In this document: one piece after another, positions 48,715-61,370 of the stretch
Numbering within the stretch: the first letter of the stretch is position 1
How the letters are laid out: each line of letters opens with the position of its first letter
NCBI GenBank assembly: GCA_963767735.1
Contig: CAVYES010000002.1
Location: 85,862-149,861, forward strand
Source: Candidatus Bathyarchaeota archaeon
GTDB lineage: Archaea; Thermoproteota; Bathyarchaeia; Bathyarchaeales; Bathycorpusculaceae
Direction of reading: 5' to 3'
Length of the DNA stretch: 64,000 bases
Notes under the pieces: model-generated
What the model was told of the DNA's origin: nothing
Seen by the model: the letters and a program-made list of their open reading frames with translations, nothing else
Databases searched by the model: none
Program-made: the position numbers and the translations under genes

Positions 48715-49653
48715 CTAAAAATTACGTTTAATGTTAAGCTTAATGTCTTTAACTTCAGCAATGATAAGATAGGAAGCAGCTAACCCCCTCCATCTGCCCC
48801 ACGACTCAGCGAGTCCCCGAGCCTCATCAGCGTTAATTGGTTTTCCACCGCAATAATACCTTGAAATAACCCGCCTGACGCCCAAATCATCAGCCGGCAG
48901 CGCATCCAGCTTTTGCATCCCCCTCAGCATAGTTAACTCAGCCGTCCAAACGCCAATCCCTCTAATTGCGTCAAGCTCAGAAATGATTTCCTCGGGGTTG
49001 CAGTTTTTTAGATGTTCAAGATCTAACTTGCCCTCTACTATTAACTTGGCTGCTCCTTGGATGTACTGGGCTTTGCGCTGGCTTAATCCGCAGCTTTGAA
49101 TTTCACTGATGCTTGTGTTCGCAATATTTTGATGGGTTGGATACGCGTAGAAGCTGTCGCCGTTTAGAAAGAGCGGTTCCCCAAACTTCTTGATTATCCT
49201 TTCCTCGAGGGCGTGTGCTACTTTGATGGAGATTTGTTGCTCAACAATTGAATCAATTAGGGCTTCGAAAACCGTTGGCGTAGTCGGGTTTTTAAGTCCA
49301 TACAACAGTTGAGCTATTTGCTGCATTACATGGTCGTTTTTGAGGTCTCGGTAAAAAGAGCACAAATCGAAGTCCAAGTTGAAAATGAATTTGACTGTTT
49401 CTTCAGCTTTTTTCTTGTCCTGCACTGTGAGTGGATTGTTAGATTTCAACTCAACACTTATCTTCGGGTCCTCAACAGTTCCGAGGGAAGCCACTTTTAA
49501 TTGGGCAAGTTTGTCATTGATGTAGACGACTTGGCTGAATTGGCTGTTTGTGTAGTTTCGGATTTGTTTGTCGCCGCTGCAGGATATTTGAGCGGTTAAA
49601 TCAAAGTTGAAAGGTGCTAAGGCTTGAACTGTAAAGGTTTCGGTGAACGTCAA
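48715..49653 (-). CDS. alkA: DNA-3-methyladenine glycosylase II (AlkA, HhH-GPD)
   Basis: FEALIDSIVEQQIS, IRGIGVWTAE, LPADDLG, WGRWRG. Confidence 0.92.
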   Translation of the reverse strand: MTFTETFTVQALAPFNFDLTAQISCSGDKQIRNYTNSQFSQVVYINDKLAQLKVASLGTVEDPKISVELKSNNPLTVQDKKKAEETVKFIFNLDFDLCSFYRDLKNDHVMQQIAQLLYGLKNPTTPTVFEALIDSIVEQQISIKVAHALEERIIKKFGEPLFLNGDSFYAYPTHQNIANTSISEIQSCGLSQRKAQYIQGAAKLIVEGKLDLEHLKNCNPEEIISELDAIRGIGVWTAELTMLRGMQKLDALPADDLGVRRVISRYYCGGKPINADEARGLAESWGRWRGLAASYLIIAEVKDIKLNIKRNF

Positions 49654-50584: not shown

Positions 50585-53500
50585 TTGGCGGATAGAAAAG
50601 GAATTATTGTGAGTAAAACTAAAAAAAAGCAAGAAAGCAGAAAAAACGAAGCTCGTAGCAGCCAAGTTAAACCGATTTTTCCGATTGCAGGTTTAGGTGC
50701 TTCTGCTGGCGGCTTGGAGGCTATCAAGAAACTTCTTGAAAGTTTACCTCAGGACACTGGCTTAGCTTTCGTTATTGTTCAGCATCTTGCCACAAACCAA
50801 GAAAGCATGCTGCCTGAAATTCTTGCGCGTTCCACCCAAATGCCCGTTAATAAAATTGAGGATGGAATGGTAATTGAACCTAACCAAGTTTACGTGATTC
50901 CCGCTGGAAAAAACGTTACAGTAGAAAATGGTCATCTAAACCTTGAACCAAAGGGAATTTCTCTAAAGCCCATTGATGAGTTTTTGTGTTCCTTGGCGTT
51001 AGAGCGGAAAACACATGCAATCGGCATTGTACTCTCAGGAACAGGTTCTGACGGAACTGAAGGGTTAAGAGCCGTTAAAGCTGAAGGCGGAATCACCTTC
51101 GTTCAAGATTTAAAATCCGCCCAATACCCTGACATGCCTAAAAGCGCCATAGCCGCGGAAGTCGTGGATTTCGTGCGCTCTCCAGAGCAGATTGCAGAAG
51201 AATTGTGCAGCATCGCTAAGCATCCAGAGATTACTCGCCAAAAAATTAATTTGGAAGAGCCTAAACCTCAAGAAGCTGAAAATAATCTGCAGACAATATT
51301 TACTTTGCTTCAAAGTTCATTCGGCGTCAATTTTGCCAACTACAAAAAAACAACAATCGACCGACGAATTAGCCGTCGAATGATCTTAAACAAAATTGAA
51401 AACGTAAACAAATATGTTGCATATTTGCGGGGGCACCGCGAAGAGCAACAAGCATTGTTTAACGACATGCTGATAAGTGTAACCGACTTCTTCAGAGAAC
51501 CAAACACGTTCTTGGCTCTGAAAGAAAAAGTCTTCCCAGACCTCGTTGAGAAAAAACAGTCCAATCAAACTATAAGGGTGTGGATTCCAGGCTGTTCAAC
51601 CGGCGAAGAAGTCTACTCAATAGCCATGGCACTTACAGAGTTCCTGGAAGAAAAAGGCTTGGCGTTTCCAATCTTAATTTTCGGAACCGACGTTAATGCA
51701 AAAAATATTGAGAAGGCCCGTCGAGGCATCTATCTTAAGTCCATTGAGAACGTTATCTCCCAAGATCGGTTGAAACGCTTCTTCACCGACTCAAACGGAA
51801 ACTATCAGGTTGCCAAGCGGATTCGTGACAAATGCGTTTTCGCGAAACATGATATCATGCAAGACCCCCCTTTCTCTAACATGGACCTAATTGTCTGCCG
51901 CAATTTACTCATTTACCTTGAGCCTTCACCGCAAGAAAGAGTAATGGCTACCCTTAATTACGCGTTAAAACCTGAAGGGTATCTTGTTTTGGGCGAATCT
52001 GAAAGCGTCGGCAAATTTACGAGCTTGTTTGAACCGTTAACAAAGAGAGGCGTAATTTTTAAGAAGAAAGGCGGTCAACCTAAAGCCGAATTGCCTATGC
52101 AAGCGCCCAATCCCTTTTCTAAGGAAATGGGCGCCTTGAACTTGCCTAAAAAGGCTGATGCCCAAGCGTTGTTGAAAGATGAAGTTGACAAGCTACTATT
52201 AACACAGTTTGCCCCTGCAACATTATTAGTTAACGACAATTCGGATATCCTTGCTGTACGCGGGCAAGTTAATCCTTACGTTTCAATAGAGCCCGGAACC
52301 CCAAGTTTCAACGTGGGCAAAATGGTGCGAAAAGATCTGCGGCCTACTGTTCAAACCGCATTATACAGAGCAAAAAAAGTTGGGAAAGATGTTAAGGAAA
52401 TAGTGCACCTTGAACATGACGGAGGCCAGAAAACAGTTAGCCTTCATGTTAAACCCATAAAATTATCAAATTACGAAGAGCCCTTCTTCCTCATACTGTT
52501 TGAGGAAAAAGAAAAGGCCGCAGTTGAAGTGCAAACAACGAAACCAACGTCTCCAAGGGACGTATTAGTGAAAGCTAAAGATCAACAAATAAGAGAGCTC
52601 AGCGAAGATTTAGAATCCACTAAGCAAACACTGCAAACCGTTATTGAGCAGCAAGAAGCAATAAATGAAGAGTTACGGTCAGCCAATGAAGAAATCCAGT
52701 CAAGCAATGAAGAGTTAATGAGCACAAACGAAGAGTTAGAGACCTCTAAGGAAGAGTTGCAGTCAGCCAATGAAGAATTAACAACGCTAAATGATGAACT
52801 TAAACAGCGAAATGGAATGCTCAAAGAATTGAACGAAGACTTGGCTAACCTGATGAGCAATGTTGACACCGCTGTGGTCATTGTAGGCAGTGATTTTAAG
52901 ATTAAACGTTTTACCGCTTCAGCTCAAGAACTTTTAAGGCTTATCCCAGAGGATGTAGGACATTCAATTTTAGGTATTCGCTTGGGCATTCCAACGGAAG
53001 AGTTGGAAAAGCCACTTTCATCGGTAATTGCCAAGAATGAGGTTGTTAGAGCAGAAATCAACGCTGGAAAAGACCGCTGGTATCAAATGCGTATCAGACC
53101 ATTCATTACTGAAGAGAAGAAAATTGGCGGAGCAGTATTGTCCTTTGTAGATGTCAGCGAAATAAAGACTTTATCGCATCAAGTTAAGGAGCAAGCAGAT
53201 AAGTTAGTTCAATCTGAAATTTTGGCGACAGTTGGTAAAACCGCGGGCATGGTTGGGCATGACATCCGCAACCCGCTGCAAGCTATAACCAGCGATGTCT
53301 ATTTGGCGAAGAACGAATTAGCTTCGATGCCTGAGAGCGATGAGAAAAAGAATGCATTAGAGAGCCTGACAGAGATTGAAGAGAACACTGAGTACATCAA
53401 CAAGATTGTTGCTGACCTCCAAGACTACGCAAGAATCCTAATGCCTCAGTTTACGAAAGTTAACGTTGAAAAAGTATTTCAAGAAGTATTGTCGTCTGTC

Positions 53501-53884
53501 ACTATTCCTAAAGATGTTGCTGTATCTTATTCTATAGCAAATGACTTCCCAATTCTCACTCTAGATGCTTCCTATTTGAAGAGGATAATGACGAATTTAA
53601 TTTCAAATGCTCTTCAAGCTATACCGAAGGAAGGAAAACTTACAGTTGATGCCTTCTGCCAAAATGGTAGTGCAGTGATTAGCGTTGCAGACACTGGTGT
53701 AGGCATTTCTGATGAAGTCAAGGATAAGATTTTCACGCCTTTGTTCACTACTAAGTCTAAAGGGCAAGGTTTCGGTTTACCGGTAATCAAAAGATTAACG
53801 GAATCTATGGGTGGAACCGTAACTTTTGATAGCGAAAAAGGAAAAGGCGCAAAGTTCACCATCAAATTCCCCATTTCCCAATAA
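50585..53884 (+). CDS. CheB methylesterase-CheR methyltransferase-coiled coil-PAS-histidine kinase fusion
   Basis: GASAGG / VQH / GSDG (CheB triad); WIPGCSTGEE, GTDVN, CRNLLIY (CheR); EELQSANEEL repeats; GHDIRNPL, N-box NLISNA, DTGVG, GFGL. Confidence 0.93.
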   Translation: MADRKGIIVSKTKKKQESRKNEARSSQVKPIFPIAGLGASAGGLEAIKKLLESLPQDTGLAFVIVQHLATNQESMLPEILARSTQMPVNKIEDGMVIEPNQVYVIPAGKNVTVENGHLNLEPKGISLKPIDEFLCSLALERKTHAIGIVLSGTGSDGTEGLRAVKAEGGITFVQDLKSAQYPDMPKSAIAAEVVDFVRSPEQIAEELCSIAKHPEITRQKINLEEPKPQEAENNLQTIFTLLQSSFGVNFANYKKTTIDRRISRRMILNKIENVNKYVAYLRGHREEQQALFNDMLISVTDFFREPNTFLALKEKVFPDLVEKKQSNQTIRVWIPGCSTGEEVYSIAMALTEFLEEKGLAFPILIFGTDVNAKNIEKARRGIYLKSIENVISQDRLKRFFTDSNGNYQVAKRIRDKCVFAKHDIMQDPPFSNMDLIVCRNLLIYLEPSPQERVMATLNYALKPEGYLVLGESESVGKFTSLFEPLTKRGVIFKKKGGQPKAELPMQAPNPFSKEMGALNLPKKADAQALLKDEVDKLLLTQFAPATLLVNDNSDILAVRGQVNPYVSIEPGTPSFNVGKMVRKDLRPTVQTALYRAKKVGKDVKEIVHLEHDGGQKTVSLHVKPIKLSNYEEPFFLILFEEKEKAAVEVQTTKPTSPRDVLVKAKDQQIRELSEDLESTKQTLQTVIEQQEAINEELRSANEEIQSSNEELMSTNEELETSKEELQSANEELTTLNDELKQRNGMLKELNEDLANLMSNVDTAVVIVGSDFKIKRFTASAQELLRLIPEDVGHSILGIRLGIPTEELEKPLSSVIAKNEVVRAEINAGKDRWYQMRIRPFITEEKKIGGAVLSFVDVSEIKTLSHQVKEQADKLVQSEILATVGKTAGMVGHDIRNPLQAITSDVYLAKNELASMPESDEKKNALESLTEIEENTEYINKIVADLQDYARILMPQFTKVNVEKVFQEVLSSVTIPKDVAVSYSIANDFPILTLDASYLKRIMTNLISNALQAIPKEGKLTVDAFCQNGSAVISVADTGVGISDEVKDKIFTPLFTTKSKGQGFGLPVIKRLTESMGGTVTFDSEKGKGAKFTIKFPISQ

Positions 53885-54072: not shown

Positions 54073-54771
54073 GTGAAAAGCTTGCCAACATTGGTTGAAG
54101 CGGTAAACCTTGCGAAAACTTACATGCTTGGAAAAGTCCCCGTGGAAGCACTCCGAGGAGTTAACCTCAAAGTTGAAGCTGGAGACTTCGTTTCCATTCT
54201 TGGGCCATCCGGAAGCGGCAAATCAACGATGCTGAACCTAATCGGCGCGTTAGACAAGCCAACCTCAGGCAAGCTTTTAATTGACGGCGTTGACATCTCA
54301 AAACTCAACGATAACCAACTGGCTGATTTGCGCAGGCGGATCGGTTTTGTTTTCCAATTTTTCAATTTAATTCCACGATTAACCGCGAAAGACAACGTTG
54401 AATTGTCAATGGCTATTGCCGATATGAATAAGGCAGAGCGAAGAAAAAGAGCGGTGGAGCTTCTTGAAACTGTAGGCTTGAAAGAACGCGTAAACCATAA
54501 GCCTGCTGAACTGAGCGGTGGACAGCAGCAACGCGTCGCGATTGCACGCGCTTTGGCAAACAAACCTAGATTTCTTTTGCTGGATGAACCGACTGGAAAC
54601 ATTGACTCCAAAACGGCAAGCGAGGTTCTGGTTTTAATCAAGAAGTTGAATGTTGAAAGTAACGTCAGCATCATTATGGTTACTCATGATCAGCATTTAG
54701 CTCGTGAAGCGAAAAGAACTGTACAGATGTTTGATGGTCAAATAACATCCGAAGTGGCGAACCAACCATGA
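54073..54771 (+). CDS. ABC transporter ATP-binding protein (LolD/MacB type)
   Basis: GPSGSGKST, LSGGQQQRVAIARAL, LLDEPTG, VTHD. Confidence 0.95.
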   Translation: MKSLPTLVEAVNLAKTYMLGKVPVEALRGVNLKVEAGDFVSILGPSGSGKSTMLNLIGALDKPTSGKLLIDGVDISKLNDNQLADLRRRIGFVFQFFNLIPRLTAKDNVELSMAIADMNKAERRKRAVELLETVGLKERVNHKPAELSGGQQQRVAIARALANKPRFLLLDEPTGNIDSKTASEVLVLIKKLNVESNVSIIMVTHDQHLAREAKRTVQMFDGQITSEVANQP

Positions 54772-56099
54772 GAACAGTGGATATTTTCGGTTACTCTTTC
54801 AGCTCAATTAAACTCCGCAAGCTCAGAGCAGCATTGACCATTTTGGGCGTAGTCATAGGCATCGCCGCCATAGTAGCGTTGCTCTCCATCACCCAGGGTT
54901 TGCAGTCAACTATAACTACCCAACTTCAGAAAGGACTGTCAACCAACACGTTAATTGTCACTCCAGGACAAAATGCTTTATCGCAAGCCACCAGCACCGG
55001 AAGCGGTAAAGGCCTTGGCAGCCGTGGGGCAGGCGGAGGCGGCTTAGGTTTAGGCGGTTCAGGCGCAAGCAGTTCTGGCTTCAACCTGTACGTCAATTAT
55101 ACTCAAGTTATCGACGGTTTGTCGCCTGAGATAGCGGGCTCGTTTGCCGTGATAGAACGGGCGGGTTACGTTGACGCTGGCGGGGTCAATTCTTCAGTTA
55201 CTATTTACGGTGTTGATTTTGCCCAGTACGCTCAGCAGTACAGTAAAACTTTTGTGGCTGCGTCAGGAACCATCCCGTTGAACCCCTCCGACAACGAGAC
55301 AGTTGTTGGAACACTCGTAAATAATCCTGGACAAAACGGCACACTCCTCTTCAGCGCAGGCAACGACATTGGCATCGTATGGACTAACGGTACAACGCTT
55401 CCAGTCGTAAACGAAACTTACACGGCGCAGGTTTCAGCAGTGCTTCAAAGAATCGGCGGCTTCGGCCTTGGCGGACCTTCAGATTCAGGCGTTTATATTC
55501 CGCTAAGTCAGGCTGAGAGCTTTTTTGGAACTGACCAATGTAACATGATAATTGTTCAGCTGAAAAGCAGCGATAACGCGACGATTACAGATGTTTCTAA
55601 GGCTATTACCAATTATTTTGGCGGTCAAGTATCCGTTATTTCGTCAACGGCGGTTTTAAGTTTGCTCTCAACCGTATTCGGAACCATACAATTGTTCCTA
55701 GGCGGCATAGCTGCTATCTCCCTGTTAGTGGCAGGCATCGCGATAATGAACATAATGATAGTGTCGTTGATTGAGCGCACACGTGAAATTGGCATACTGA
55801 AAGCGTTAGGGATGAAAAGCCGAACCGTACTAACCATCTTCCTAGGCGAATCAGTTATAATCGGGGTAATCGGCGCATTAGTCGGCATAGCATTAGGCTG
55901 GATATTAGCGAACATTGTTGCGAAGCTTTTAGCTTCAGGAACCTTCGGCGGAAACGGATTCGTGGTGACACCGCTTTTGACTCCGGAAGTGTTTGTGGGC
56001 GCTTTAGGTTTCGGTATAGGAGTCAGCGTAATCTTCGCGCTGTACCCGGCGTGGCGTGCCTCTAAGCTCAAACCCGTAGAAGCTTTAAGATACGAATAG
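54768..56099 (+). CDS. ABC transporter permease (MacB/FtsX type)
   Basis: RAALTILGVVIGIA, ERTREIGILKALG, PAWRASKLKPVEALRYE. Confidence 0.94.
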   Translation: MRTVDIFGYSFSSIKLRKLRAALTILGVVIGIAAIVALLSITQGLQSTITTQLQKGLSTNTLIVTPGQNALSQATSTGSGKGLGSRGAGGGGLGLGGSGASSSGFNLYVNYTQVIDGLSPEIAGSFAVIERAGYVDAGGVNSSVTIYGVDFAQYAQQYSKTFVAASGTIPLNPSDNETVVGTLVNNPGQNGTLLFSAGNDIGIVWTNGTTLPVVNETYTAQVSAVLQRIGGFGLGGPSDSGVYIPLSQAESFFGTDQCNMIIVQLKSSDNATITDVSKAITNYFGGQVSVISSTAVLSLLSTVFGTIQLFLGGIAAISLLVAGIAIMNIMIVSLIERTREIGILKALGMKSRTVLTIFLGESVIIGVIGALVGIALGWILANIVAKLLASGTFGGNGFVVTPLLTPEVFVGALGFGIGVSVIFALYPAWRASKLKPVEALRYE

Positions 56100-56124
56100 C
56101 ACATACAACTAACGAGGAGTTCCC

Positions 56125-56574
56125 ATGAAGCGGTTATACCCTGATCAGCCAGTTGTAGGCGTTGGCGCAGTAATAGTCGATAACGGCAAGATTGGGCTTA
56201 TAAAACGAGGCAACGAACCCAGCAGAGGAAAATGGACAATTCCAGGCGGCTTAGTTGAGCTTGCTGAAAGCCCCGAGCAGGCGGTTGTCCGAGAAGCCAA
56301 AGAGGAAACTGGTCTCGACGTTGAAAACCCAGTTTTAGTTGACGTGGTCAGCAATGTTGATTTGGATGAAAACGGCAAAGTCAAATACCATTATGTCATC
56401 ATCGAATATTTTGTGCATGTAAAAGCAGGAACAGCTCAAGCTTTAAGCGACGCCGCGGAGCTACGTTGGGTTCCCTTCAGAGAAGTCGAAGATTACGATT
56501 TAACAAGGTCATTTAGACTTTTCTTCACCAACAATAGGGAAAAACTAGAAAAAGCAAACTCGTATAAACCTTAA
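56125..56574 (+). CDS. NUDIX hydrolase
   Basis: Nudix box GGLVELAESPEQAVVREAKEETG. Confidence 0.93.
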   Translation: MKRLYPDQPVVGVGAVIVDNGKIGLIKRGNEPSRGKWTIPGGLVELAESPEQAVVREAKEETGLDVENPVLVDVVSNVDLDENGKVKYHYVIIEYFVHVKAGTAQALSDAAELRWVPFREVEDYDLTRSFRLFFTNNREKLEKANSYKP

Positions 56575-56695
56575 ATGGCATGAAGAGCCGCAAGTTTACT
56601 GCACAATCAACTTAAGACTTAAATTAGAAATCATTGATTAGTAGCCTAATTTTCAGGATACGTTCTTAAATAACTAGTAGAGAATAAAATATTGG

Positions 56696-57295
56696 TTGAA
56701 TGAGGGAAAAATATTGACCGCAGACTATCTTTTCATAGTTAGGCATGGAGAAACCGAAGCTAACGAAAAAGGAATAGAGGCAGGCCCATTGGATTACCCC
56801 TTGACTAAGAGGGGCGTGAGAGGAGCGTTGTTCATCGCCAAGACCCTCTCGAAAGTAAAGATAAATGCCGTTTACAGCAGTCCAGTGTTTCGCGCCCACG
56901 AAACTGCAAAAATTCTGGCGCGCCCTCATAAGGTGAAGGTGAAAACTCTTGAGGAACTGACTGAAGCAAAAATCAAACCCGAATTCGTAGGCAAAAAGGG
57001 CCGACATCACATACTAACCACCCCTGAAGCCTTCACAGAGACAAACAATGATCTTCTAGAACGAACAAGTAAAGCCATCGAAATCATCAAAAAAGAAGCT
57101 GAAGGAAACGTGATTATGGTTTCCCACGGCGACGTGATAACCGCTTTGCTTGAAGGTGTGGTCGAAAGAAAAGTCAGCACCGAGAAATACTACGTTCTCG
57201 ACCCTTATCCCGCCGCACTAAGCATAGTTGAAATCAAAAATAGACCGCAACTTATCCTATACAATTATCATCGTAAGATGTTCGCCGACTTCTAA
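56696..57295 (+). CDS. Histidine phosphatase (phosphoglycerate mutase) family protein
   Basis: VRHGET, SSPVFRAHET, VSHG. Confidence 0.9.
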   Translation: MNEGKILTADYLFIVRHGETEANEKGIEAGPLDYPLTKRGVRGALFIAKTLSKVKINAVYSSPVFRAHETAKILARPHKVKVKTLEELTEAKIKPEFVGKKGRHHILTTPEAFTETNNDLLERTSKAIEIIKKEAEGNVIMVSHGDVITALLEGVVERKVSTEKYYVLDPYPAALSIVEIKNRPQLILYNYHRKMFADF

Positions 57296-57334
57296 TTCTC
57301 GACTCTGATAGGTTTGCTGTAAAAAACAGTTAAA

Positions 57335-58720
57335 ATGGAGCAAACAACTTTAGTGAACATGGCTCAAGAAGTTCCTGACGATTTAAAGGATTTAATCGTG
57401 CGTTTTGTACGAATTTATAGCGGCGTCACTGATTTAGCGCTTGATCATTACCTGAATCCTAAACCGTGGTTTATGCCGCTGAACAGTATCTTGGCGAAAA
57501 GAGAAGCTGCCCACTATTTTTTGCTTGCCGCATCGCTTAGCGACAATAGGCTTACAGGAAACCCAAGAAACATCCGAATCCTGCTCTACCATCTTTACAG
57601 CAGACTCGGAGGCAAACTATACACCACAAAAATCCCAGTGGAATTCACAGGTGAAATTCGGAAATTTGAGCAGGACATAAAAAAGCTAGATCAACTGGGA
57701 GAAGCAAAGGATGAGATTCCAGAAATATTATCCTCAGTCAACCGATTCATAGAACAGAGAGCTCATGGCGACTTAATTGAATATACAACTATGCTGAGTC
57801 AAAAAGGAAACAAGCCCAAAGACTTTGTTGAGGAACTAATGTATAAGGTAAAAAGAATGAATAAACACCATAAAGCAAAGTCTTGGCTGTATCTTCGTTG
57901 GATGACTCGAGGTCCACCTGACTTAGGGCTTTTCCCGTATAACCCTAAAGATTTGATGGTGCCACTTAGCACGCCTAAATTCAGAGTTTACGCTTCTTTG
58001 GGTCTTAGTGATAACGAGAATTTACCTTTCCAATTAAACGCCAAAAATAAACCGGAAAGCTGGTGGAACGGCACTGCAGAATTTGATGATGACGCAAACA
58101 GGTTAACTAGTTTTGCCCGCTCTCTTTTTCCCGATGATCCAGCCAAAGTAGATTTTCCCTTCTTTATCTTAGGTACCTGGCTCGAAAATTCTGACTTAAC
58201 ACCTGTTTCTTTAGAGAGGTCTCTGCGTTTTTTCATTCAGAAATATCAGGAATTGCTTCAGCCACTTATGCGATACTTAACTGTCGTTTCTCACTACAAT
58301 AAAGCGGGCGAAGAATTTGAGCTTGGAGTGTTTACCGGGTTAGAAAAAAATGTTTATGATTTTTTAAAGAACAAACAAGTGACGTTTAACTACGAGTTTA
58401 TGGAATTTCGCTTATCAAAAGAAAACCCAACAACAGACCGATCTCTAACCTACAAACCAGACTTTCTATTGCCGCAACTTACAGATAAAGGCAGAAAGAT
58501 TTTGCTTGAACCCCACGGAGTCAAAAACAACCTCAAAGGATTCCTATACAAGCTCTCAACATTCCGAAAACTCTACGGCGACTACTTCTGCCTCATCCTA
58601 GTTGTTCCAGACGATTTCATTGAGGCAATCGATAAGCTTGATCCGAAGCATTTGGCGTATGACTATATTTGGAAACAAAGCGAATACAAACGCAAATATG
58701 AAAAACTTCAAAATTCATAA
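57335..58720 (+). CDS. DUF2400 (TIGR02757)/HhH-like domain fused to a C-terminal PD-(D/E)xK-type nuclease domain
   Basis: WLYLRWMTR.PPDLGL...LMVPL.T..RV...LGL and DPAKVDFPFFILG resemble DUF2400; EKNVYDFL...NYE...YKPDFLL...LLEPHG resembles restriction-endonuclease-like nucleases. Confidence 0.7.
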   Translation: MEQTTLVNMAQEVPDDLKDLIVRFVRIYSGVTDLALDHYLNPKPWFMPLNSILAKREAAHYFLLAASLSDNRLTGNPRNIRILLYHLYSRLGGKLYTTKIPVEFTGEIRKFEQDIKKLDQLGEAKDEIPEILSSVNRFIEQRAHGDLIEYTTMLSQKGNKPKDFVEELMYKVKRMNKHHKAKSWLYLRWMTRGPPDLGLFPYNPKDLMVPLSTPKFRVYASLGLSDNENLPFQLNAKNKPESWWNGTAEFDDDANRLTSFARSLFPDDPAKVDFPFFILGTWLENSDLTPVSLERSLRFFIQKYQELLQPLMRYLTVVSHYNKAGEEFELGVFTGLEKNVYDFLKNKQVTFNYEFMEFRLSKENPTTDRSLTYKPDFLLPQLTDKGRKILLEPHGVKNNLKGFLYKLSTFRKLYGDYFCLILVVPDDFIEAIDKLDPKHLAYDYIWKQSEYKRKYEKLQNS

Positions 58721-58833: not shown

Positions 58834-60294
58834 TTAATTTATATCTTTAAAGAACAGCCGTGTCTCCCCCATTGTTTTGATGTCTAGGGCTCGGACGCGT
58901 GCTACAATAGGAAAGTCACTTACGACTTTGCCAAGTGTGAGGCAATGGTGGGGTGGCAGATCACGGGCGATCGAACGTACAGTTTCCGCATCCACGCGGG
59001 CAGCTCGGCTTACAACGTCTAAGTCGTGTTCGTTAGTGAAGTTGAAGAGAAAAATGTTGTCGGCTTGGCGATAAATCGTTTCTTGAATCGTGTCAGGCTG
59101 GTTCGTAATGAAGGTGGTGAATATGCCGAAGTGACGCATACGCGTTACGATGTCATCCCAGTAAGTCTCTCTTAGATAGAGATGAGCTTCTTCTGCGAAA
59201 AGAAATACTGCTTTCAGCTTCCAATTCGAGAGGGAATCAACAAGTTTTCCAAGAGCGTATTCAACTACGATTTGTCGGTCGATGTTCGAGGTGTTTTTCA
59301 GGTTTATGACGATTGCGCCGCCTTGATCCTTGGCTTTCAAGATGCTTTCATCCAGCAATGTTGCTTCACCTGGAGCGTCGGTGAAGAAGCCTGAGTTAGC
59401 AAGGGAATGGAACCGTGAGGCTAACGCGTCGCGGACATGCTGGTTGCAGTTTAAATCGCGAATCGCCTCGCCTAGTTCCTGCATGTTCAATTTTCCTTTT
59501 TCCTTAAGCATCTTCCATATGCGACGGAACTCACGCGCTGAAGTCCCAGGCAAATGCAGTGCATTGACCAGTATGCCCATTACCGTGTTTAGGTGGAGCT
59601 GTTCGAGGGCTACTTTGAAGTTCTGCCCCGGAGTCAGGGTGTGAATTTTGTCGTAGTACATGTTTCTTTTGCCGTCATTACTCATGCCTAAGCTAGTGTA
59701 TTCGCCGTTTAAGTCAAAAATGACGACAGTTGCCCTGTAACCAACCAGGTTAACCATCAACAGCTTTGATAGATGGGATTTGCCGCAGCCTTTCTTGCCC
59801 GTTATGATATTTAACGTTCCATCTATTGCTGAAGCATCAATCGTTAAAAGCGATGAGTCTTTGGTGCCGCCCAAAATTATGGGAAGTTTACCATCAACCT
59901 TTGCCAGTTTCATAAGCATGGGAATGGACAGTTTTTTGATGGTTGATTGCGAACGGCTTGGAAGCCAACTGCTGCTTGGACTAAGCACTCCATTTTCCAA
60001 CGTTGCCCTAATCTTGCAAATCAGCAAGCTAGCGTCTTGGATGTAAGTTATGTGGGGAGCGATTTCCATGGGGTCAATGTCTTCGCCCTGCAAGGGTTCG
60101 CCACCGTCCGGAAGAGTCCGCAAAAGCTCCTCAAGCACTCCGGGAACCGCTGCAAACTGAACATCGATGACCTGCGCAATCAAGGCTTTGGCGGCGTCTT
60201 GGTCTTCGACGAGTAGGTAGTCGCCTTTTTCAGCGCTCTCCGTTGGGAAACTGATGATTTGCAGCATGTTGCCTTCTTTTCTGTAGAGTTTCAT
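58834..60294 (-). CDS. HerA/DUF87 family ATPase (helicase/translocase)
   Basis: N-terminal HAS-barrel-like region; GKKGCGKS Walker A, FDLNGEY, FAEEAH Walker B, RMRHFG. Confidence 0.88.
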   Translation of the reverse strand: MKLYRKEGNMLQIISFPTESAEKGDYLLVEDQDAAKALIAQVIDVQFAAVPGVLEELLRTLPDGGEPLQGEDIDPMEIAPHITYIQDASLLICKIRATLENGVLSPSSSWLPSRSQSTIKKLSIPMLMKLAKVDGKLPIILGGTKDSSLLTIDASAIDGTLNIITGKKGCGKSHLSKLLMVNLVGYRATVVIFDLNGEYTSLGMSNDGKRNMYYDKIHTLTPGQNFKVALEQLHLNTVMGILVNALHLPGTSAREFRRIWKMLKEKGKLNMQELGEAIRDLNCNQHVRDALASRFHSLANSGFFTDAPGEATLLDESILKAKDQGGAIVINLKNTSNIDRQIVVEYALGKLVDSLSNWKLKAVFLFAEEAHLYLRETYWDDIVTRMRHFGIFTTFITNQPDTIQETIYRQADNIFLFNFTNEHDLDVVSRAARVDAETVRSIARDLPPHHCLTLGKVVSDFPIVARVRALDIKTMGETRLFFKDIN

Positions 60295-61370
60295 GCGTAG
60301 ATTTCCCCCGAGCCGAACGGACCAAAAAGCAGCCGATGCATGTCTGGGCGGTTTATCATTTGTATGCCGTGTTTGCGTGTGATGAAGTGTTTGATGGCTA
60401 AGACTTCGTTAGCGGTGAAGGTACAGAGGATATGTGATAACCTCAAAGTTTCAGGGTAGCTTTGCTTGTAGAGATCGTTACCGATTAACTTCTGCAAAGC
60501 AGCCATTCTCTGCTCTGACGGGGTTTCTTTATCAATATCTAAACGAAACGCAAAATTTGCCTTGTTTAAACGCGCAACATAAACATCGCCCAGCAGCGTT
60601 ATCGGCGGTTTAAAATGTACACCTGTGGTTTCAAGCAGGTAGGGCGGGTCATGGTTTGGCAGCTGCTCAGTTATCAGGATGCCGTTAGCTCTAAGAGTTG
60701 TTGCTTTTGAGAATGCAAGAACGGTGCTGTCGTTTCTTCTTGCATAACCCAGAATTTCCCTGAGGCGCTGAACAGGTGTATCGATTGTGCCAGAGATTAA
60801 GGAGCCGTCAAAGAGGATTACGCCATGGCTCACGGTTTTGGCAAGCATAGTTTGCAGCCACCTCTCCAATAAGCCGGCAAGTCGCATGGGCATCTGCATG
60901 ATGTTTGGGGCGGCTTGGTGGCTGGCTCCATAGCTGGTGCTGAAATAAGCGTGTTCCAGCGTATTGTAGAGAGCGTTTTTGTTTTCCTCTGTTATGTGGA
61001 ATATGAATGGCCCGAGGCGCGTGTACTTGTAGCTTTGGTTTTGGCGCCACGTGGTTGCTCCCCTGATGGCCACGATTATGCCGGTGCTTGTTTCGCCTAT
61101 TTTTATGGTTGAGGTGTCTATGGCGGCGATTAGGGTTTCTTGGTGGTCTGGTTTTATGGGGATTGATTGTGGTTTTAGTTGTATGCTGGAGGGGTATTGT
61201 TCGGTTACGCTGAATTGTTGCAGGTTTTGGGGGTTTAGTTGGAAGGGTTGGTGCTGGACTTGTTTTAGGGAGTGGAGGCTTTGTTCTAGGAAGCGTTGTG
61301 GGAGTGTTGTGTCGATGGTTGGTTGTGGAAAGTTATATTTGTCAGTAATTGTATATTGTTCAATCACCAT
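60291..61370 (-). CDS. NurA-like nuclease with Gln/Pro-rich N-terminal extension
   Basis: IAAIDTS, VILFDGSL, FSK, YPETLRLSH; its stop overlaps the HerA start (ATGA). Confidence 0.8.
   Translation of the reverse strand: MVIEQYTITDKYNFPQPTIDTTLPQRFLEQSLHSLKQVQHQPFQLNPQNLQQFSVTEQYPSSIQLKPQSIPIKPDHQETLIAAIDTSTIKIGETSTGIIVAIRGATTWRQNQSYKYTRLGPFIFHITEENKNALYNTLEHAYFSTSYGASHQAAPNIMQMPMRLAGLLERWLQTMLAKTVSHGVILFDGSLISGTIDTPVQRLREILGYARRNDSTVLAFSKATTLRANGILITEQLPNHDPPYLLETTGVHFKPPITLLGDVYVARLNKANFAFRLDIDKETPSEQRMAALQKLIGNDLYKQSYPETLRLSHILCTFTANEVLAIKHFITRKHGIQMINRPDMHRLLFGPFGSGEIYA

Follow-up and report, generated by a model that had tools for sequence, protein, structure and literature searches.

What does a protein do that joins a helical domain of predicted glycosylase-like fold to a predicted nuclease on a single polypeptide? 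The question is raised by the open reading frame (ORF P0001) at 57335..58720 (+) in a 64,000-nucleotide stretch of contig CAVYES010000002.1 from a Candidatus Bathyarchaeota archaeon, the whole of which is called the window below. The frame is uninterrupted and codes for 461 aa plus a stop codon, at the position given in an earlier note on this DNA, and its product is the type A member of two paralogous fusions between a DUF2400 domain and a nuclease. The answer that we favor, at a probability of roughly 0.45, is that the fusion is a predicted incision endonuclease of genome maintenance, directed at lesions, apurinic/apyrimidinic (AP) sites or aberrant bases.

Every motif string quoted in the earlier note was located in the translation: LRWMTR (aa 187-192), PDLGL (aa 195-199), PLSTP (aa 210-214) and DPAKVDFPFFILG (aa 268-280) in the N-terminal domain, and GLEKNVYDFL (aa 335-344), YKPDF (aa 373-377) and LEPHG (aa 391-395) in the C-terminal domain. 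About 170 clusters of homologs were found, mostly of ~450 aa with some down to ~250 aa; those that carry a name are called 'DUF2400 family protein [Candidatus Bathyarchaeia archaeon]' or 'hypothetical protein'. The N-termini of the homologs match M9 of the frame (MAQEV...), and an AT-rich, TATA-like stretch lies upstream of 57335, at ~57318-57334. For both reasons the true start is probably the ATG at 57359, which would give a product of 453 aa.

The first ~307 residues (57335..58255, +) were identified by Pfam, AlphaFold and Foldseek as an all-helical DUF2400 domain with an HhH (helix-hairpin-helix) glycosylase-like fold. Pfam family PF09674 (DUF2400) covered aa 109-229 with E=2.3e-8 (34.8 bits against a gathering cut-off of 25 bits), and a six-frame search of the genome recovered the same match. 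The equivalog cut-off of NCBIfam TIGR02757 was not reached (37.2 versus 139.2 bits). The Pfam scan of the fusion protein gave no match to PF00730 at E<=1, and three bona fide PF00730 genes are found elsewhere in the same genome. An AlphaFold model of the fusion protein built on 27 homologs had a predicted local distance difference test score (pLDDT) of 82.8 and a predicted template-modeling score (pTM) of 0.82, and was all-helical to about residue 307. A linker with short strands follows at about aa 308-333 (58256..58333, +) and is the least confident part of the model (pLDDT 50-69 over aa 310-330).

The top matches of the N-terminal domain in a Foldseek search of the PDB were structures of the nucleotide glycosylase of queuine salvage, Qng1/DUF2419 (7u07, 7uk3, 7u5a and 7ulc), at a probability of 1.00, with an alignment of ~305 columns and a moderate template-modeling (TM) score of ~0.5 of the target. 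The archaeal 8-oxoguanine glycosylase MjOgg (3knt and 3fhf) was matched at a probability of 0.96-0.99, also with moderate TM-scores (0.58-0.59 of the target), such that the scores for Qng1 and MjOgg together span 0.48-0.59 of the target. When the PDB was searched with the N-domain, either with its sequence alone or with a profile of 28 sequences, only spurious matches to helical bundles were returned. The assignment to the HhH-glycosylase fold therefore rests on AlphaFold and Foldseek, from which we conclude that the domain is predicted to adopt a two-lobe helical HhH-glycosylase-like fold. The earlier note had read this region as a DUF2400 domain with an HhH-like fold, and the Pfam match and the two structural searches agree with it.

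Stand-alone DUF2400 relatives (250-300 aa) were gathered by an exhaustive HMMER search and aligned with the fused proteins. The stand-alone pattern is A-R-K-K-x-W-M-Y-M-R-W-M-V-R-P-x-P-D-L ... (V/I)-P-(V/L)-D-x-N-V-A-K-V. In the window protein the second helix of the HhH-like motif reads A181-K182-S-W184LYLRWMTRGPPDL197 (57875..57925, +), and A181 sits where the stand-alone proteins have the invariant Lys of A-R-K-K-x-W. Further along, in P210-L-S212-T-P214 (57962..57976, +), S212 replaces the Asp of P-[VL]-D-x-N, the counterpart of the Asp in the VDTHV motif of Nth. A wider set was divided by the presence of this Asp into 35 relatives of the stand-alone type and 127 sequences of the fused type; the Asp is thus present in 35/35 of the former by the classification used, while the Lys is present in 34/35 and the two are 32 residues apart in 30/35. 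Neither residue occurs in any fused-type sequence (0/127 at each position). The Lys position is occupied there by Ser, Ala, Glu, Asp, Gly or Pro, and the Asp position by Thr, Ser or rarely Asn.

The two Nth proteins of the same genome carry GVARKTANIV ... IAVDTHVRRL and GVGPKTADVV ... IPVDTHVNRV, and the R-K... and V-D-x-[NH]-V-x-[KR]-V segments of stand-alone DUF2400 and Nth plainly correspond. In the HhH-GPD superfamily the catalytic Asp follows the HhH motif, and bifunctional members have the Lys as well. Qng1 and the HhH DNA glycosylases share just two residues that are invariant and critical for catalysis, a Lys and an Asp, which in Qng1 of S. thermophilus are K199 and D231, 32 residues apart (PMC9881137). 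Judged by motif and spacing, the lost Lys is most probably the equivalent of the HhH catalytic Lys. The earlier note had seen the loss of the Asp and of a His; loss of the Lys at the A-R-K-K-x-W position is new relative to it, and with this second loss the glycosylase-like site is much more likely to be catalytically dead. The Asp loss itself proved real and clade-specific, as all 24 stand-alone proteins in our tree have P-x-D and all 16 fused proteins have Thr or Ser. The motif had been given as PLDTH/PVDxH, of which the Asp stands; the nearest stand-alone proteins have P-[VL]-D-x-N, in which His is rarer than Asn.

Other residues of the pocket were retained. W184, R188, W189, R192, D196, D268, P269 and D273 are invariant in both the fused and the stand-alone groups, and the DUF2400 block D268-P-A-K-V-D273-F-P-F-F-I-L-G280 (58136..58174, +) is kept in both forms. 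A pocket that is kept while its catalytic pair is gone appears to be the pattern of an enzyme turned binding module.

We also considered whether the site still works as a bifunctional glycosylase, excising the base by means of other residues (e.g. D196, D268 or D273 together with K182) and leaving the abasic site for the nuclease to cut. K182, which lies beside the lost Lys, is retained in 122/127 fused proteins, and several Asp residues are still invariant, as such a mechanism would have it. However, stand-alone proteins that have the canonical Asp show the same invariance of the remaining Asp residues, indicating that D196, D268 and D273 are not replacements for it, and both canonical positions were lost together in every fused protein. 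We regard this as the least probable of the explanations considered here.

The C-terminal domain (aa 334-461; 58334..58717, +) was identified by profile and Foldseek searches as a PD-(D/E)xK nuclease domain homologous to T7 endonuclease I. A profile of 20 C-domains, fused and stand-alone, matched the T7 endonuclease I entries 1m0d, 2pfj, 1fzr and 3cae in the PDB at E=8.7e-11 to 1.4e-9, the best of these being 1m0d with ~80 residues aligned. The single C-domain sequence matched Pfam Phage_endo_I (PF05367) weakly (E=0.01; 15.9 bits versus a cut-off of 29.1). In the alignment with T7 endonuclease I, G-L-E-K-N-V pairs with G-L-E-D-K-V, F-x-Y-E with F-E-Y-E, Y-K-P-D-F-L-L-P with Y-T-P-D-F-L-L-P, and L-E-P-H-G with V-E-T-K-G. 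By alignment and profile, E337 (58343..58345, +) pairs with the first-helix Glu of T7 endonuclease I, D376 (58460..58462, +), the 'PD' Asp of YKPDF, with the Asp of TYTPDF, and E392-P393-H394 (58508..58516, +), at the '(D/E)xK' position, with E-T-K. The T7 residues concerned are E20, D55, E65 and K67 in the usual numbering.

A separate model of the C-domain (pLDDT 84.9) showed a PD-(D/E)xK fold with an alpha-beta-beta-beta-alpha-beta core and the predicted active site on strands 2 and 3. Foldseek matched it in the PDB to PspGI and VC1899 at a probability of 1.00 and to Card1 and Cdn1 at ~0.9, with BstEII and XPF also matched. From these data we conclude that the C-domain is a T7 endonuclease I homolog of PD-(D/E)xK fold and a predicted nuclease; the restriction-endonuclease-like fold that the earlier note had proposed for it is borne out by the profile match and by the PspGI and VC1899 matches. 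Among 27 homologs, with identities as low as 44%, no variation was seen at E337, E354, P375-D376-F377, K388 or E392-P393-H394-G395. Down to ~25% identity, D376 and E392 remain invariant and E337, E354, P393 and H394 are at least 90% conserved, suggesting that the nuclease site is under selection. The homolog survey thus upheld the expectation that the fusion and its E...PD...E-x-H residues would be conserved, to about 30% identity.

The Lys of the E-x-K of T7 endonuclease I is replaced by H394, and E-P-H is near-invariant in the clade. A Lys or Arg on the following helix (K406 in the window protein) is also conserved, and migration of the Lys to the following helix is a known variation among PD-(D/E)xK enzymes (PMC3424549). 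Stand-alone T7-endonuclease-I-like proteins of 177-282 aa were observed in other archaeal lineages (P0227 of Marsarchaeota, P0236 of Micrarchaeaceae, P0231, P0232 and P0237). Most of them have E-P-H, and P0227 has a canonical E-A-K.

The relationship to T7 endonuclease I raises the possibility that the fusion is a structure-specific endonuclease which cuts four-way junctions, forks or flaps. The old glycosylase domain would then be a generic HhH DNA handle, a design comparable to the nuclease-plus-(HhH)2 arrangement of XPF/Mus81/Hef. The only significant sequence relative of known function is a Holliday-junction resolvase, phage 'Endonuclease I' models were the best viral fold matches of the C-domain model in BFVD (E=5e-6), XPF-ERCC1 is among the weak fold matches, and loss of the catalytic pair is equally expected of a mere DNA handle. 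Nevertheless, a canonical resolvase, Hjc, was found in this genome and in 11/13 same-genus genomes sampled (the two without it are <60% complete). The invariant pocket residues and the DP.K.D..F..LG block have been kept across large evolutionary distances, which is needless for a generic handle. In addition, the first helix of the AlphaFold monomer is folded back in cis and not swapped as in the intertwined homodimer of the T7 enzyme, although a monomer prediction cannot show swapping. We consider this explanation unlikely, but the foremost among the alternatives.

To place the fusion within its family, a maximum-likelihood tree was built from 41 N-domains (16 fused, 24 stand-alone and P0141). 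All 16 nuclease-fused proteins form one clade with a support of 95/91, nested inside DUF2400, and the nuclease fusion thus appears to have arisen once. The sister of this clade is P0141, a 330-aa metagenomic protein with Thr in place of the Asp and a different tail. The Asp is kept in all 24 stand-alone proteins outside the group formed by the fused clade and P0141. As the fused clade and the Asp loss fall in the same part of the tree, fusion and loss of chemistry coincide.

Other DUF2400 proteins differ at their ends. P0141 closes with a tail of ~50 aa that by eye resembles a HicB/UPF0150 antitoxin-type domain (...PGCITQGETEEEVLKNMEEAI...) and takes the place of the nuclease. P0158 and P0160, both metagenomic, have DUF6884 ahead of a DUF2400 domain that keeps the Asp, and the C-terminus of P0161 is a Cys-rich, zinc-ribbon-like tail.

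A four-Cys loop was found at the C-terminus of 8/19 aligned stand-alone relatives (P0176, P0181, P0191, P0205, P0206, P0208, P0209 and P0219), most often spaced C-x6-C-x2-C-x7-C, with variant spacing in P0205 and P0219. This loop resembles the iron-sulfur (Fe-S) cluster loop of EndoIII/MutY, which argues that DNA is the substrate of the DUF2400 family and suggests that part of DUF2400 may be a family of iron-sulfur DNA glycosylases. The nuclease is attached at this same terminus, with which EndoIII contacts DNA, and by analogy would sit on the DNA-facing side of the fusion.

A DNA substrate is not what the best fold match alone would suggest. Qng1, the top match of the N-domain, encloses free queuosine-5'-monophosphate, stand-alone DUF2400 shares its 32-residue Lys-Asp spacing, and four nucleases that are activated by ligands, VC1899, Card1, Can2 and Cdn1, are among the best PDB fold matches of the nuclease domain. 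These similarities are consistent with a ligand-gated nuclease, in which a Qng1-like pocket binds a free nucleoside, nucleotide or base without hydrolyzing it and thereby switches the nuclease on or off, a logic that can be likened to that of the CARF-nuclease effectors Card1 and Can2. The ligand might be a 7-deazapurine or a nucleotide derived from damage or infection, and the gating of the T7-endonuclease-I-type nuclease would be allosteric. The Fe-S-like tails of the stand-alone relatives point instead to DNA, however, and no signal-synthesizing gene is linked to the fusion at the loci examined. Moreover, the Card1 and Can2 matches reflect the common PD-(D/E)xK core (TM ~0.2 of the target). 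We find gating by a small ligand improbable; if true, a pseudo-glycosylase would have given rise to a new class of nuclease that is gated by small molecules.

Whether the fusion belongs to genome maintenance or to defense can be judged in part from its distribution. It is carried by 112/120 species genomes of the genus, including 73/73 of high quality. Beyond the genus, a match was found in 19/151 genomes of the order sample and in 29/301 genomes (7/107 genera) of the class sample. The type B paralog, of ~416 aa and 36-42% identical to the 57335-58720 protein, is present in nearly all species of the genus, and several other genera have it too. Type A, to which the window gene belongs, is found in ~38/120 species, usually alongside type B, with 60-82% identity among its members. 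Several type A copies are split or contain a stop codon, but they are not taken as evidence of pseudogenization: many of the 'internal' stops precede the real start, and most of the split copies come from few-contig metagenome-assembled genomes, where frameshift errors are plausible.

The genome of the window also has a type B gene (G000:C4:559010-560146; locus L028, 8005-9255), whose 416-aa product is 36% identical to type A and shows the same changes, Asp-to-Thr in VPLTKENANV and E-P-H in VLEPHF. Genes for an HExxH protein (125 aa) and a JAB/MPN-type protein (142 aa, HSHPSGNxxPSxxD) lie downstream of it; they are syntenic only in close relatives, at identities of at least 80%.

The surroundings of the window gene are those of an ordinary chromosome, with a family B DNA polymerase, Toprim, UMP kinase, polyprenyl synthase, ABC transporters and an AlkA-like glycosylase. 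Fusion genes in general have ordinary chromosomal neighbors, e.g. PolB, Toprim, UMP kinase, NadA and LeuRS, and more distant homologs adjoin unrelated housekeeping genes. No sign of a mobile element or island was seen: the 64-kb window contains no tRNA genes, and the flanking genes scanned, at ~40-63 kb of the window, comprised housekeeping genes and no integrase. When the fusion protein was compared with PADLOC-DB v2, 0 families matched at E<=1.

From the ORF list and Pfam, the fusion gene is the last of a co-directional run with short gaps whose preceding genes span 54073-57295 (+). The run begins with two genes assigned by eye, one for an ABC ATPase (54073-54771) that shows Walker-A and signature motifs and one for a permease-like protein, and continues with NUDIX and histidine phosphatase genes (Pfam), the latter two immediately upstream of the fusion; this arrangement is specific to this genome. 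Convergent downstream, at 58834-61370 (-), Pfam and PADLOC identified genes for a HerA-like ATPase (486 aa) and a weakly NurA-like protein (359 aa, E=0.0015) that overlap by 4 bp. The HerA-like ATPase matched Pfam DUF87 (E=7.7e-15) and PADLOC 'mad8' (E=9e-17), and weakly the antiphage HerA and CedD models. The HerA/NurA-like pair, which may be either the housekeeping HerA-NurA or one of defense type, lies beside type A in 0/20 loci of other genomes. As candidates for a conserved operon partner, the NUDIX, histidine phosphatase, HerA, NurA and ABC genes were all rejected, because they adjoin the fusion gene in 0 of ~30 other loci. Upstream of the run, at 50585-53884 (+), a 1099-aa ORF appeared by eye to combine a CheB/CheR-like methyltransferase, a long coiled coil, a PAS-like region and a histidine kinase.

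Such neighbors bear on a further explanation, namely modification-dependent (Type IV-like) restriction, in which the dead pocket would read a modified base of the kind found in phage and the nuclease would cut the foreign DNA. MspJI, PvuRts1I and enzymes like them are built on this plan of a reader joined to a PD-(D/E)xK nuclease, and the fold matches include MspJI, AspBHI and PspGI. The patchy occurrence of type A with its variable neighbors, and the convergence of the window gene on a HerA/NurA-like pair with matches to 'mad8' and antiphage HerA models, are also as this explanation would predict. It accounts less well for type B, which in addition to being near-universal is syntenic within the genus and looks vertically inherited. 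Nor is there an integrase, a tRNA or a recognized defense gene besides the HerA/NurA-like pair among the scanned genes, which are otherwise housekeeping, and that adjacency does not recur at the other type A loci. On balance restriction seems distinctly unlikely, if not as improbable as gating by a ligand. Between restriction and repair, the two options of the earlier note, repair fits better, because the fusion is near-universal and vertical in the genus, lies in housekeeping surroundings, matches no PADLOC model and has no conserved defense or mobile neighbors.

One neighbor did recur. An AlkA-like HhH-GPD gene (~320 aa) lies within ~3 kb of type A at 8/20 loci in other genomes, directly downstream in three cases, directly upstream in one (L037, L038, L041 and L045 are the adjacent loci) and 1-3 kb away in four (L039, L047, L048 and L050). 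Ten of the 15 genomes that have both type A and the AlkA-like gene have them within ~3 kb of each other. In the window itself, the neighborhood scan identified a different AlkA-like gene at 48715-49653 (-), 7.7 kb upstream of the fusion. The recurrent AlkA-like neighbor is suggestive of a repair context.

Repair genes found in the same genome, besides Hjc, are those for NucS, EndoV, an Endo IV-like protein, two Nth proteins and AlkA-like glycosylases. We therefore ruled out that the fusion replaces an absent nuclease, as all of these are present.

Our preferred explanation, incision directed at lesions or aberrant bases, draws on the Fe-S loops in relatives, the genus-wide vertical inheritance, the housekeeping context, the nearby AlkA-like gene and the lack of defense hallmarks. 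The following mechanism would account for the observations. The N-module would have descended from a DUF2400 enzyme, a divergent N-glycosylase of HhH fold. As it lost the HhH Lys (now A181) and Asp (now S212) and kept the rest of the pocket, the most likely outcome is that it still binds its old target without excising it. Candidates for this target would be damaged or modified bases and abasic sites, located within a DNA duplex or beside one. The C-module, a putative T7-endonuclease-I-type PD-(D/E)xK nuclease in which the metal-binding acidic set of E337, D376 and E392 is complete and H394 stands for the Lys, would then cut the DNA backbone close to the bound site. A single polypeptide might thus do, or back up, the job that is normally divided between a glycosylase and an AP endonuclease, and would supplement, in this lineage, an archaeal repair set that is complete without it. 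We infer DNA as the ligand, specificity for lesions, nuclease activity and coupling of the domains from sequence comparisons and predicted structures, and on the same grounds it is reasonable to infer that base recognition licenses the nuclease.

Several observations weigh against this explanation. T7 endonuclease I is a junction resolvase and not a lesion nuclease, and nuclease activity of the fusion cannot be assumed given that H394 takes the place of the Lys. The repair gene set is complete and therefore leaves no gap for the fusion to fill. Type A is present in only about one-third of the species and in variable neighborhoods, as an accessory or defense gene would be. The proximity of the AlkA-like gene is restricted to a single genus, and gene order shared by descent could account for it. 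A literature search yielded no description of a DUF2400-nuclease fusion and no functional account of DUF2400 that would name its target; the name DUF2400 occurred once, incidentally, and TIGR02757 never. Finally, Qng1, the best structural match, acts on a free nucleotide and not on DNA (PMC9881137).

The fused clade amounts to a natural experiment in which a nuclease was gained, both catalytic residues were dropped and the pocket was kept. If the protein is directed at lesions or modifications, it would constitute a new type of archaeal repair enzyme, a one-protein 'read and cut' device alongside EndoV, NucS and EndoQ. It would also reveal what DUF2400 enzymes recognize, and it might find use as a reagent for cutting DNA where a particular damaged or modified base occurs. 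The nuclease half is of interest in its own right, as a predicted T7-endonuclease-I-type enzyme with E-x-H for E-x-K that was recruited as a chromosomal archaeal gene. Since the Bathyarchaeia are abundant and uncultured, a lineage-specific function in genome maintenance there would be new ground.

Comparison with known systems places each half of the fusion near known families. With the uncharacterized family DUF2400/TIGR02757 (PF09674) it shares W-x-Y-x-R-W-M-x-R-x-x-P-D-L and D-P-x-K-x-D-x-P-F-x-x-L-G, and its N-domain nests in the tree of that family. Unlike other members, it is without the family Lys and Asp and ends in a nuclease of ~130 aa instead of a plain end or a four-Cys loop. The predicted two-lobe helical fold of the N-domain is that of the HhH N-glycosylases (Qng1, 7u07; MjOgg, 3knt/3fhf; EndoIII/Nth), and stand-alone DUF2400 proteins have the Qng1-spaced Lys...Asp pair and an Nth-like '[PA]-V-D-x-[NH]-V-x-[KR]-V' helix. 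In contrast, the fusion has no sequence-level match to solved glycosylases or to PF00730, and has A181 and S212 in place of the catalytic residues. T7 endonuclease I (gene 3; PF05367; 1m0d, 2pfj) resembles the C-domain in its profile, first-helix Glu, PD Asp and the Glu of E-x-K, whereas the fusion has E-P-H-G, carries its nuclease behind a 300-aa domain, and is archaeal and chromosomal.

A candidate parallel for the N-domain is S. pombe Mag2, a catalytically inactive HhH glycosylase-like protein that binds abasic DNA, i.e. a glycosylase fold that lost its chemistry and was kept as a binder of DNA damage. Mag2 is not known to carry a fused nuclease, and the likeness drawn here is one of fold and logic, not of sequence. 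The recognition domains of EndoV, NucS/EndoMS, EndoQ and MspJI are unrelated to that of the fusion, and EndoV and NucS are encoded by separate genes in this genome. The logic proposed for the fusion is nonetheless like that of these four enzymes, in which an aberrant or modified base is read and the backbone is cut nearby without excision.

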